Both the position numbers and the translations under genes were made by a program. Positions 5,061 through 60,265 of a DNA stretch of 64,000 bases are shown here, one piece after another. Source of the stretch: Escherichia coli. Lineage in GTDB: Bacteria > Pseudomonadota > Gammaproteobacteria > Enterobacterales > Enterobacteriaceae. The stretch lies in NCBI RefSeq assembly GCF_003334355.1, contig NZ_QOWP01000005.1; one strand, given 5' to 3'. The notes beneath the pieces are model-generated. The model saw nothing but the letters and a program-made list of their open reading frames with translations. It was not told the origin of the DNA and did not search any database. Each line of letters opens with the position of its first letter. The stretch's first letter is position 1.

Positions 5061-5678
5061 ATGAACCGCTTTGTGGTGGCCGAACCACTGTGGTGTACAG
5101 GATGTAATACCTGTCTCGCTGCCTGTTCGGACGTGCATAAAACGCAAGGTTTACAGCAACACCCGCGCCTGGCCCTGGCGAAGACGTCAACAATCACTGC
5201 CCCTGTCGTGTGTCATCACTGTGAGGAAGCCCCTTGCCTGCAGGTCTGCCCGGTCAATGCCATCTCTCAGAGGGATGATGCGATCCAACTCAACGAAAGC
5301 CTCTGTATTGGCTGCAAGCTTTGCGCCGTGGTCTGCCCATTTGGCGCAATCAGCGCTTCAGGAAGCCGTCCGGTGAATGCCCATGCGCAATATGTTTTTC
5401 AGGCTGAAGGCTCACTCAAAAACGGCGAAGAAAACGTGCTGCCCCAACATGCGTTGCTGCGCTGGGAACCGGGTGTCCAGACCGTCGCGGTGAAATGCGA
5501 CCTGTGTGATTTCTTGCCAGAAGGTCCGGCCTGCGTTCGCGCTTGCCCGAATCAGGCGTTACGGCTGATCACCGACGATAGCCTGCAACGTCAGATGAAA
5601 GAAAAACAGCGCCTTGCCGCAAGCTGGTTTGCCAATGGCGGGGAGGATCCCCTTTCCCTCACTCAGGAGCAACGCTAA
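5061..5678 (+). CDS. hyfA: Hydrogenase-4 component A, 4Fe-4S ferredoxin-type subunit
   Basis: ORF 5022..5678; start at MNRFVVAEPLWCTGCNTCLAAC gives 205 aa; several CxxCxxCxxxCP iron-sulfur motifs. Confidence 0.93.
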   Translation: MNRFVVAEPLWCTGCNTCLAACSDVHKTQGLQQHPRLALAKTSTITAPVVCHHCEEAPCLQVCPVNAISQRDDAIQLNESLCIGCKLCAVVCPFGAISASGSRPVNAHAQYVFQAEGSLKNGEENVLPQHALLRWEPGVQTVAVKCDLCDFLPEGPACVRACPNQALRLITDDSLQRQMKEKQRLAASWFANGGEDPLSLTQEQR

Positions 5679-7706: not shown

Positions 7707-8653
7707 ATGAGACAAACTCTTTGCGACGGATATCTGGTCATTTTTGCGTTAGCACAGGCCGTGATTCTGCTGATGCTAACCCCACTTTTTACGGGTATTT
7801 CCCGGCAGATACGCGCGCGTATGCACTCCCGCCGCGGGCCGGAGATCTGGCAGGATTATCGCGATATCCACAAACTGTTTAAACGCCAGGAAGTTGCGCC
7901 TATATCTTCAGGTCTGATGTTCCGCCTGATGCCGTGGGTATTAATCAGCAGCATGCTGGTGCTGGCGATGGCCCTACCACTATTTATTACCGTTTCCCTT
8001 TTGCGGGCGGCGGCGATCTGATCACCCTTATCTATCTTCTTGCCCTGTTTCGTTTTTTCTTTGCTCTTTCAGGGCTGGATACCGGAAGCCCGTTTGCGGG
8101 AGTCGGTGCCAGTCGCGAGTTGACGCTCGGCATTCTGGTCGAACCCATGCTCATTCTCTCACTGCTGGTATTGGCGCTGATAGCGGATTCCACGCATATC
8201 GAGATGATCAGCAATACGCTGGCGATGGGCTGGAACTCGCCGCTAACCACCGTACTGGCGTTACTGGCCTGTGGTTTTGCCTGCTTCATAGAGATGGGAA
8301 AAATTCCCTTTGATGTTGCTGAAGCAGAACAGGAATTACAGGAAGGCCCGCTGACCGAATATTCCGGTGCCGGGCTGGCGTTGGCGAAATGGGGACTGGG
8401 GCTGAAACAGGTCGTGATGGCAGCACTGTTTGTGGCCCTGTTTCTGCCCTTTGGGCGCGCGCAAGAACTTTCTCTCACCTGCCTGCTGACTTCACTTGTC
8501 GTTACGCTGCTCAAGGTTTTGCTGATTTTTGTACTGGCTTCAATCGCAGAAAACACGCTGGCACGCGGGCGTTTTTTACTCATTCACCATGTGACCTGGC
8601 TTGGCTTCAGCCTTGCTGCGCTTGCATGGGTCTTCTGGTTAACCGGTCTGTAA
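7707..8653 (+). pseudogene. hyfC: Hydrogenase-4 component C (HycD/NuoH-like membrane subunit), reading frame interrupted
   Basis: N-terminal part MRQTLCDGYLVIFALAQ... (frame of 7707) ends at TGA 8019-8021; the rest (...FPFAGGGDLITLIYLL...WVFWLTGL*) is open only in the -1 frame (track ORF 7934..8653). The span is 947 nt, one base short of an intact 316-codon gene; the break sits at the ccc/tttt run 7996-8002. Confidence 0.85.
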
Positions 8654-57246: not shown

Positions 57247-57262
57247 GTATTTTACAGGCAAT

Positions 57263-57292
57263 AAAAAACCGCCGAATTTGGCGGTTTTTTAT
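57263..57292 (+). terminator. Intrinsic terminator after sseA
   Basis: aaaaaa-ccgcc-gaatttg-ggcgg-tttttt (A-run, hairpin, T-run). Confidence 0.7.
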
Positions 57293-57590
57293 TGCTAGTC
57301 TGGTTCGCGGCCTTTCCAGCAGGTTGACTTGTGTTACATGAGCAACGCAGGTGCTTCACAGCAAAACAATACTCACCAGTAACTCTCTTTTTGTCAAGCA
57401 AAAGAGAGTAATTATTGTTTATTTAGCGTATTATCGACACCGGCCCTTTCCGCCGTGTTCGGTAATAAAATAACCTGGCTTATTAGTCCGAATTCAGACA
57501 AATATAAACAAATCCTGCTCAAAATTAAAAATTCTAACCGGTAAAAGATATTACTTAAACATGTAAATTCACTTTCCTTTAAAAAACAAA
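57287..57590 (+). ncRNA. ryfA: RyfA-like small RNA region (copy 1 of a tandemly duplicated unit)
   Basis: About 300 nt bounded by two intrinsic terminators, no ORF over 20 codons with a credible start; contains the 10-bp perfect inverted repeat actctctttt/aaaagagagt. A RyfA sRNA is described between sseA and sseB in E. coli. Boundaries approximate; strand inferred. Confidence 0.4.
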
Positions 57591-57618
57591 AAACCGCCAA
57601 AATCAGGCGGTTTTTTGT
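57585..57618 (+). terminator. Intrinsic terminator between the two repeat copies
   Basis: aaaaaacaaaaaa-ccgcc-aaaatca-ggcgg-tttttt. Confidence 0.7.
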
Positions 57619-57620
57619 TG

Positions 57621-57790
57621 CTGGTCCGGTTCGCGGCCTTTCCAGCAGGTTGTATTACCGTAGTAATGCAAGCGCGTCTCAGCGGAGACAATACTCGCCA
57701 GTAACTCTCTTTTTGTCAAGCAAAAGAGAGTTATTATTGTTCTGTTAGTGTATTATCCACTGCGGCCCTTTCCGCCGTCTCGCAAACGGG
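57621..57790 (+). repeat. Second copy of the RyfA-like unit (direct repeat of 57296-57465, period about 325 bp)
   Basis: Shared blocks ggttcgcggcctttccagcaggtt, caatactc[a/g]ccagtaactctctttttgtcaagcaaaagagagt[a/t]attattgtt and cggccctttccgccgt in the same order and spacing as copy 1, with diverged stretches in between. Confidence 0.7.
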
Positions 57791-57907
57791 CGCTGGCTTT
57801 AGGAAAGGATGTTCCGTGGCCGTAAATGCAGGTGTTTCACAGCGCTTGCTATCGCGGCAATATCGCCAGTGGTGCTGTCGTGATGCGGTCTTCGCATGGA
57901 CCGCACA

Positions 57908-58033
57908 ATGAAGATACGGTGCTTTTGTATCGTACTTATTGTTTCTGGTGCGCTGTTAACCGAGGTAAATAATAACCGGAGTCTCTCCGGCGATAATTTA
58001 CTGGTGGTTAACAACCTTCAGAGCAGCAAGTAA
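57908..58033 (+). CDS. Candidate small hydrophobic protein (41 aa), possible type I toxin of RyfA/TimP type
   Basis: ATG 57908 to TAA 58031-58033: MKIRCFCIVLIVSGALLTEVNNNRSLSGDNLLVVNNLQSSK; hydrophobic N-terminal stretch, followed directly by a terminator hairpin. No strong Shine-Dalgarno. Speculative. Confidence 0.25.
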   Translation: MKIRCFCIVLIVSGALLTEVNNNRSLSGDNLLVVNNLQSSK

Positions 58034-58036
58034 GCC

Positions 58037-58065
58037 CGAATGCCGCCCTTTGGGCGGCATATTTT
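58037..58065 (+). terminator. Intrinsic terminator at the end of the RyfA-like region
   Basis: Hairpin atgccgccc-ttt-gggcggcat followed by atttt, immediately before the sseB stop on the opposite strand. Confidence 0.65.
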
Positions 58066-58869: not shown

Positions 58870-58976
<107 letters not shown>

Positions 58977-58981
58977 TTAGT

Positions 58982-60265
58982 TTACGCCGTTAACAGATTA
59001 GCTATCGTGCGCACACCAAGTCCCGTAGCGCCCGCAGACCACTGTTCAACCGGCGCTTTACGGTAAGTCGCCGAGCAGTCGATATGCAGCCAGCCTTGCT
59101 GATAGTTCTCAACAAAGTGCGACAGGAAGCCCGCCGCCGTGCTCGCGCCTGCCGGATACGCCGCGCTTCCGGTATTGTTCAGTTCGGCAAAGTTAGACGG
59201 CAGCTGGCTGCGGTGGAACTCCGCCAGCGGCAGACGCCAGAACGGTTCGTTCTCCTGCGCGGCACTCGCCAGCAAGCGACCGGCCAGCGCATCGTCAAAA
59301 CTGAACAGCGCGTGATAATCATTACCCAGCGCAGTTTTCGCCGCCCCGGTGAGGGTCGCCGCATCAATGATCATTTCCGGTTTCTGCGCACTGGCATCAA
59401 TCAGACCATCGGCAAGCACCAGACGCCCTTCGGCATCAGTGTTCATCACTTCAACTTTTTTACCGTTGCGATAGGTGATGATATCGCCCAGCTTGAACGC
59501 ATTGCCGCTAATCAGGTTATCCGCACAGCAGAGGAACAGCTTCACGCGCTTGTTCAGTCCGCGCGTAATGGCAAATGCCAGCGCCCCGGTAACCGTTGCC
59601 GCGCCGCCCATGTCCGACTTCATCGAGTCCATAAACGCAGTCTGTTTGATGCTGTAGCCGCCGGAGTCAAAAGTGATACCTTTACCTACCAGGCACGCGT
59701 ACACTGGCGCTTCTTTATCGCCAGTTGGGTTGCAATCCAGCGCCAGCAATACCGGAGAACGTTCTGAACCGCGTCCGACGGTGTGCAGCCCCATATAACC
59801 TTGCTCACGCAGATCTTCGCCTTTGGTGATCCGATAAGTCACACGATCGCCCGCGACGTTGCTGATCAGATCAACAGCACGCTGTGCCAGTTGCGATGGT
59901 CCCAATTCTTCTGCCGGTGCGTTGATGGTGTCACGCACCCAGTCGATGATCATCAGGCGGTTATCCAGTTCCTGGCGCTGGGCATCGTCCAGATCCGGCC
60001 ACTCCACTTTACGCGTGCCTTTCGGGGCTTTGTAACCTTGCCAGAATGCCCAGCAGCGATCCGCATCCCAACCTTCACCGCTTAACTGAACATGCTTGAT
60101 GCCCAGACCGTCAATCTTGCGGGCCGCACGCTGGATCAGCCCCAGATCGTCTGCCCCGTTCAAATGCAGGGTAATGCCATCATTATTAATGCTGTAAGTT
60201 GCTTTTTCTCCCCAGCGCGCGTCGGCAGGTTGGGTAGAGAGGGTAATTTTCATCGCTTCTGTCAT
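58982..60265 (-). CDS. pepB: Peptidase B (M17 leucyl aminopeptidase family)
   Basis: 427-aa [33 protein letters not shown]... with the M17 active-site motif NTDAEGRL. Confidence 0.95.

Follow-up and report, generated by a model that had tools for sequence, protein, structure and literature searches.

The presence of a short hydrophobic ORF at the 3′ end of RyfA, formerly described as an sRNA, raises the question as to whether such an ORF is coding and whether its product belongs to the small membrane toxins. In Salmonella, Andresen et al. showed that ryfA encodes a 38-aa inner-membrane protein and renamed the gene timP; this protein is toxic when overexpressed, its toxicity depends on the ATG, and its repressor is TimR, a divergent sRNA (PMC7667032). 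The toxicity of E. coli TimP, according to a further study, "remains to be determined" (PMC13188913). We examined a 64,000 nt stretch of E. coli DNA (contig NZ_QOWP01000005.1 of assembly GCF_003334355.1), referred to here as the window, for which an initial annotation made from the letters alone had proposed that the RyfA transcript encodes a small type I membrane toxin whose translation is repressed by structure. The present analysis yielded the identity of the gene, the conservation of its frame, the conservation of its RNA helices and its complementarity to TimR. We conclude, with a probability of about 0.87, that the 41-codon ORF is timP, the E. coli orthologue of the toxin gene in the timP/TimR type I toxin-antitoxin module.

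Identification of the ORF as timP

The ORF runs from an ATG at 57908 to a TAA at 58031-58033 on the plus strand and encodes MKIRCFCIVLIVSGALLTEVNNNRSLSGDNLLVVNNLQSSK, a product of 41 aa in which residues 5-17 have a mean Kyte-Doolittle hydropathy of 2.86 and are preceded by K2 and R4, the remaining residues 18-41 averaging -0.68. Both the coordinates and the hydrophobic character are as the initial annotation had given them. Taken alone a 41-codon ORF is no more than chance, the 2.5 kb between 56500 and 59000 being overlapped by 39 ORFs with a length of 20 aa or more. This one stands above chance because of its family match (E = 8e-25) and because its frame is kept across genera. Against the NCBIfam model NF040796 "toxic_TimP", which has a curated cut-off of 45 bits, the product scores 86.8 bits with residues 1-40 on profile positions 1-40 of 40, and the ORF lies inside a full-length match to the Rfam ryfA model (RF00126; 57762-58065, 314 bits). 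The neighbourhood consists of sseA upstream, an intergenic stretch and then the convergent sseB followed by pepB, with timP located between sseA and sseB as published (PMC7667032).

The gene is not new, having already been described and annotated. In E. coli MSI001 the coding sequence that RefSeq annotates as "small toxic inner membrane protein TimP" (WP_001380605.1) corresponds exactly to 57908-58033. The 901 nt surrounding the ORF, used as a query, are 100% identical in MSI001 and have a match in all 5426 of the 5426 complete E. coli genomes. Over the 186 nt from 57880 to 58065 K-12 strains differ at one position and MSI001 is identical, indicating that the window is not K-12 itself. The proposal of a type I membrane toxin in RyfA, with its translation held back by structure, is thus in agreement with the published work on the system (PMC7667032, PMC11228461, PMC13000454) and with the RefSeq CDS at identical coordinates. 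No second copy of timP was found within the window and the PADLOC defence models gave no match. The features of the locus are collected in Table 1.

Table 1 Features of the timP/TimR locus. Positions refer to the window, except for the three fusion deletions, which are numbered within the named loci
Feature	Position	Strand	Basis or remark
timP mRNA (formerly sRNA RyfA), ~302 nt, with 144-nt structured leader	57764..58065	+	5′ end inferred by homology; RF00126
SL1, with pseudoknot site 1 CGCUGGC (57791-57797)	57768..57807	+	Rfam structure; pair counts, 17 sequences
Site 2 GGCCGU, complementary to SL4 5′ strand GCGGUC (57885-57890)	57818..57823	+	Mapped from PMC13000454
TimR target (57825-57844) and SL2 (57829-57848)	57825..57848	+	20 contiguous pairs with TimR-1 5′ end; Rfam structure, fold
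SL3, with pseudoknot site 3 GCCAGUG (57865-57871)	57851..57884	+	7-bp helix of sites 1 and 3
SL4, sequesters Shine-Dalgarno GGA (57898-57900)	57885..57904	+	Rfam structure, MFE fold
timP coding sequence, 41 aa and stop	57908..58033	+	RefSeq CDS WP_001380605.1, NF040796, frame conservation
timP intrinsic terminator	58040..58060	+	Between timP and convergent sseB; Rfam ryfA model ends there
TimR-1, distal antitoxin sRNA gene, type A, cognate to the timP of the window	57258..57362	-	Ends inferred; homologues, SL2 pairing
TimR-2, proximal antitoxin-like sRNA gene, type B, imperfect match to the timP of the window	57584..57683	-	Alignment with homologues
Remnant of deleted first timP copy, body of Rfam "IS128"	57441..57588	+	16 nt of timP 5′ end, 13 nt sseB-derived, AT-rich segment
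TimR-SL2 fusion deletion, E. coli 06-00048	L004 1450-1655		PGAP still annotates timP
TimR-SL2 fusion deletion, C. amalonaticus AUH_CA_2023_1	L018 about 8069-8130		
TimR-SL2 fusion deletion, Y. aleksiciae 159	L033 about 5340-5409		ORF stop codon also lost, 42 aa

A second in-frame ATG at 57896 would give a 45-aa version with four extra residues. We rejected this start since the ATG overlaps the Shine-Dalgarno element, is AAG in Erwinia and Rahnella and lies outside the NF040796 profile, which begins at the Met of 57908; the latter two observations identify 41 aa as the conserved form. The initial annotation had described the ORF as lacking a strong Shine-Dalgarno, which is accurate with the addition that a weak one does exist, the GGA 7 nt 5′ of the ATG, which is the sole Shine-Dalgarno-like element and forms part of the 3′ strand of SL4. 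The terminator-like hairpin that it had placed downstream of the ORF is also present, with nine pairs of which seven are G-C and a T-rich tail, but is separated from the stop codon by 6 nt (58034-58039) where 4 nt had been given.

Conservation of the reading frame

A word-indexed protein search returned TimP entries from Escherichia and Shigella only, nearly all of 41 aa, and for this reason loci from further genera were taken from a DNA-pattern scan of one genome per species in which the pattern was the hairpin SL4 only, lying upstream of the ORF and leaving the ORF itself out. About half of the 35 pattern matches had arisen by chance in unrelated phyla and were set aside. This retained 18-19 enterobacterial loci from seven genera (Escherichia, Citrobacter, Superficieibacter, Yersinia, Rahnella, Erwinia and Pantoea), all of which were confirmed as ryfA by Rfam with scores of 190-323 bits.

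In every retained locus the timP ATG lies 1 nt 3′ of the SL4 hairpin, the ORFs are 38-42 aa long with length differences of whole codons only, and stops occur in most of the alternative frames. Conservation is seen in the N-terminus, MK(I)RxxCIVLxVSGAL, while the C-terminal half drifts fast. Nei-Gojobori dN/dS ranges overall from 0.10 to 0.88. Yersinia, Pantoea, Erwinia and Rahnella give 0.10-0.22 when compared with one another and 0.23-0.42 when compared with the window, and some comparisons involving Escherichia and Citrobacter, in which substitutions are very few, rise to 0.8-0.9. All of these ratios are to be read with the conserved RNA hairpins inside the ORF in mind, which could depress synonymous change and so blur dN/dS. 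Conservation of the frame had been named in the initial annotation as a check on its own proposal, and the fixed ATG and whole-codon indels across seven genera bear it out; within E. coli at least 80% of the segment from ORF to terminator is present in 5410 of the 5426 complete genomes, and 5414 carry it at 95% identity or more.

Many database TimP entries end or turn into unrelated sequence (…GNDSNLLIVFYVQIMPDD…) at around codons 24-40, often at contig ends, which suggests disruption of timP by insertion sequences in some Escherichia and Shigella lineages. Such disruption is rare among complete E. coli genomes, where 16 of 5426 are without 80% coverage.

Structure of the timP leader

The 5′ end of timP was placed at ~57764 because the Salmonella ORF start at +145 then corresponds to 57908 and the Salmonella residues C57, C58 and G59 to 57820-57822 (PMC7667032, PMC13000454). 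The minimum free energy fold has a z-score of -5.4 and contains SL2, SL3 and SL4. In an alignment of 17 intact leader sequences 97% of cells are paired, in comparison with 36-54% when the partners are slid. The 7-bp pseudoknot between SL1 and SL3 is fully paired in each of the 17 sequences, and at three of the seven pairs both partners are changed, which constitutes covariation. All six pairs of the helix between site 2 and the 5′ strand of SL4 are likewise kept in 17/17 sequences, with a single one-sided change. The GGA of the Shine-Dalgarno element is paired in the Rfam consensus, the MFE fold and the centroid fold; the invariance of SL4 is itself uninformative, with no covariation assessable, because SL4 served as the search pattern. 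Sequestration of the Shine-Dalgarno by SL4 has been demonstrated experimentally in Salmonella (PMC11228461).

Two short hydrophilic ORFs starting at 57338 and 57667 had initially been put forward as possible leader peptides, an idea that does not hold. They cannot be leader peptides of timP because they lie outside its transcript, both being upstream of the 5′ end at ~57764, are opposite the TimR genes and have ATGs that are absent in other E. coli alleles. What they represent is the TimR 5′ ends and promoters read on the sense strand. A uORF inside the Salmonella timP 5′UTR has been tested and was dispensable (PMC11228461).

Two TimR genes of different specificity

The intergenic region contains a direct repeat of ~322 bp (57263-57456 and 57589-57778), and each copy carries on the minus strand a perfect TTGACA (at 57397-57392 for TimR-1) and an RNA of ~100 nt with a variable 5′ end and a strong terminator. 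TimR homologues from the corresponding upstream sequences of six genera can be aligned with both copies, and all have in common a recognition stretch at the 5′ end, two hairpins, of which the first is small and the second (GCUGG...CCAGC) has an invariant loop, and a terminator. The Rfam models of ohsC, OrzO-P and AgrB gave sub-threshold matches only, on the TimR terminator regions. TimR-2 is probably the ECS011/IS129 RNA of ~95-100 nt seen by northern blot (PMC3175480).

The two genes differ in how well they match the timP of the window. Between TimR-1 and 57825-57844 there are 20 contiguous pairs (17 Watson-Crick and three G-U), the only long run in the window, whereas TimR-2 meets SL2 with two mismatches and three G-U pairs; in other E. 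coli lineages SL2 is matched perfectly by TimR-2. The corresponding duplexfold energies are -45.3 kcal/mol for TimR-1 and -36.3 kcal/mol for TimR-2, in comparison with -47.7 kcal/mol for a cognate type-B pair and -28.0 kcal/mol for a clear non-cognate pair. Outside the window 15 of 16 loci have 16-22 contiguous pairs to SL2 located 82-99 nt upstream of timP, in a sequence that differs by lineage, and the remaining one has 16 of 17 pairs. This lineage-specific intermolecular co-variation supports the pairing of TimR with SL2 outside Salmonella and, together with the complementarity, is consistent with TimR-mediated repression of timP. TimR-1 is probably the effective repressor of the timP in the window, by analogy with Shigella RyfB1, which acts on RyfA1 and not on RyfA2 (PMC5333039).

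The loop of the second TimR hairpin (GCUGG...CCAGC; 57304-57322 and 57630-57648, minus-strand RNA), AAAGGCCGC, is almost invariant from Escherichia to Rahnella (alignment A3, columns 46-73), and where the stem passes into the loop it reads GGAAAGG, a motif shared with the 3′ strand of timP SL1; the element might be a site for protein binding or for a second contact. We considered such a second contact of TimR with timP, between the invariant loop GGAAAGGCCGC and the timP 5′ end GGCCCUUUCC, and did not adopt it as it comprises only seven pairs and a bulge, finds no support in published probing and involves a sequence matching SL1's own 3′ strand.

Proposed control of timP expression

In the model that we propose the ~302-nt RyfA transcript would consist of the 144-nt structured leader, the 41-codon ORF and the terminator. 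Inner-membrane localisation, membrane leakage and growth inhibition upon overexpression have been demonstrated for Salmonella TimP only (PMC7667032), and a Sec signal is predicted for the TimP allele of UPEC (PMC8205139). By homology the E. coli protein, with its hydrophobic and putatively Sec-signal-like N-terminus, would insert in the inner membrane and render it leaky when overproduced. For E. coli the translation of timP, the membrane targeting and toxicity of its product and the switch mechanism are thus all proposed on the strength of the Salmonella experiments.

With its Shine-Dalgarno GGA enclosed in SL4, timP would have an intrinsic restraint on its translation. Initiation in Salmonella needs both the SL1-SL3 pseudoknot and a helix between site 2 and the SL4 5′ strand, and is blocked by TimR on SL2 (PMC11228461, PMC13000454). 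By homology, initiation at E. coli timP would likewise require the pseudoknot of 57791-57797 with 57865-57871 and also site 2 paired with the SL4 5′ strand. A divergent TimR of ~100 nt would use its 5′ end to pair with SL2 (57825-57844), thereby preventing the active conformation. In the window the cognate TimR would be the distal copy, transcribed from 57362 to 57258 on the minus strand, the adjacent copy being of a different specificity type.

A possible decayed tandem duplication

The locus in the window, with one timP and two TimR genes of different specificity, appears as a decayed tandem duplication, an observation that may be new. The intact state is represented by E. coli strain N4220121, in which TimR-B/timP-B, an 87-nt sseB fragment, the AT-rich segment and TimR-A/timP-A follow one another, both modules are intact and each TimR is cognate to its neighbouring timP. 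Single-copy E. coli loci also have matching TimR/SL2 pairs, of type B in 1EC213 and of type C in strain 110, and within E. coli there are at least three co-varying TimR/SL2 types, A, B and C.

Rfam IS128 (RF00125) matches 57422-57630 on the plus strand. We reject IS128 as an independent sRNA gene, as comparison with the two-module locus of N4220121 (L040, 2655-3066) points to a deletion remnant and strand-specific probes for it were negative: Shinhara et al. did not detect IS128 with such probes and detected instead an antisense RNA of ~95-100 nt (PMC3175480). The IS128-type remnant is present in 2243 of the 5426 complete E. coli genomes, with type-A SL2 in 1975 and TimR-A in 2021. Tentatively, and at slightly less than even odds, we suggest that K-12-like E. 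coli (~40% of complete genomes) carry a mosaic timPR locus, in which the distal TimR-1 by sseA would be the functional repressor and the adjacent TimR-2, usually taken as "TimR", an orphan of another specificity.

Three independent deletions, in E. coli, C. amalonaticus and Y. aleksiciae, fuse the TimR body to SL2 with removal of both promoters and SL1, having arisen via the direct repeat made up of the TimR recognition sequence and its target. Further downstream, between sseB and pepB, there are sub-threshold Rfam matches to naRNA4 (58943-58987, plus strand; 40.3 bits against a gathering score of 59.5) and to ES036 (58898-58939, minus strand; 29.7 bits against 37.6), which resemble REP-type palindromic repeats.

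Comparison with known systems

The closest relative is the timP/TimR system of Salmonella enterica serovar Typhimurium (Andresen et al. 2020; Eleftheraki & Holmqvist 2024; Eleftheraki et al. 2026), with which the locus shares the NF040796 and RF00126 families, a position adjacent to sseB, the placing of the ATG after SL4, the SL1-SL4 architecture, the pseudoknot, the complementarity of site 2 to SL4 and a divergent TimR whose 5′ end pairs with SL2. It differs in the length of TimP (41 aa, 38 in Salmonella) and its diverged C-terminal half, in lacking a gene like STM2534 between sseA and timP, and in having two TimR genes, the adjacent one not being the best match, where Salmonella has one.

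The RyfA1/RyfA2 and RyfB1/RyfB2 RNAs of Shigella dysenteriae (Fris et al. 2017) are similar in being organised as tandem duplicated modules, the same two-module layout that is intact in E. coli N4220121, and the RyfB RNAs are small, divergent and partner-specific through the variable region now called SL2. In contrast to this two-module locus the window has its first toxin copy deleted, with its TimR and the IS128-annotated remnant left behind, and the surviving timP has the SL2 type of the distal and not of the adjacent TimR.

More distant parallels are tisB/istR-1, shoB/ohsC, zorO/orzO and dinQ/agrB, in which a small hydrophobic peptide of the inner membrane is likewise encoded beside a divergent sRNA with short complementarity to the 5′UTR, and the ribosome-binding site is sequestered by structure. 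Unlike these, the timP mRNA requires no nucleolytic processing, its structural switch depends on a pseudoknot and TimP is described as having a Sec-type signal (PMC7667032, PMC11228461).

Toxin, membrane protein or regulatory RNA

An alternative that we consider unlikely is that TimP is a real small inner-membrane protein with a physiological and non-toxic role, in which case the killing would be an artefact of ~350-fold overproduction and there would be no true toxin-antitoxin system. The possibility was raised by the authors of the Salmonella study, in which native de-repression by deletion of timR led to TimP being made with mild Cpx/envelope stress and no growth defect, and in which the Sec-type signal was found to be unlike other type I toxins (PMC7667032); the retention of timP in 5426 of 5426 complete E. 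coli genomes points in the same direction. However, multi-layer repression and lineage-specific co-variation of TimR with its target are typical of harmful products, the loss events delete both promoters together, and Salmonella timP expressed in E. coli strongly selects for loss-of-function mutants (PMC13000454).

It is less probable still that RyfA in E. coli is mainly a regulatory or dual-function RNA with the ORF being minor, acting in stress resistance, fimbriae and virulence via RNA-level interactions, with TimR as an RNA partner and not an antitoxin. Such a role would fit the restoration of ryfA phenotypes in UPEC by ryfA alleles with a disrupted ORF (PMC8205139), the discussion of RyfA and TimR phenotypes in APEC as sRNA-sRNA regulation (PMC13188913) and the lowering of ompC by overproduction of Shigella RyfA1, from which Fris et al. 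detected no peptide (PMC5333039), as well as the strong structure of the leader and of the hairpins internal to the ORF. RNA function alone does not however explain why, in seven genera, the frame is open from the same start, indels come in whole codons and dN/dS lies well below 1; the conserved leader elements are those controlling translation initiation (PMC11228461, PMC13000454), and a function of the RNA would add to coding and not replace it. A fortuitous reading frame within a structured non-coding RNA, as the frequency of such ORFs (39 in 2.5 kb) and the absence of a strong Shine-Dalgarno might suggest, is effectively refuted by the family match and the frame kept across genera, and mutation of the start codon in Salmonella abolishes both the protein and the toxicity (PMC7667032).

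Because of the failure to detect a Shigella peptide, the complementation in UPEC by ORF-disrupted alleles, the minimal effect of timR loss in APEC (PMC13188913) and the mild stress seen in Salmonella, RyfA may also act as an RNA and the word "toxin" may overstate the native role of TimP.

Implications for the timPR locus in E. coli

With timP in the literature from 2020 on, covered by a curated NCBIfam model and called by PGAP in E. coli genomes, the finding of the gene itself adds little. The exercise does show that a real type I toxin is recoverable by inference from sequence alone. The better-matched TimR is not the one adjacent to timP, which matters for the design of timR deletions and for the reading of RyfA and TimR phenotypes in E. 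coli. If the mosaic arrangement is true the orphan TimR-2 might give immunity against type-B timP alleles recombined into the locus, or have other targets, and the arrangement could help to explain the weak phenotypes of timR deletion in E. coli of this layout.
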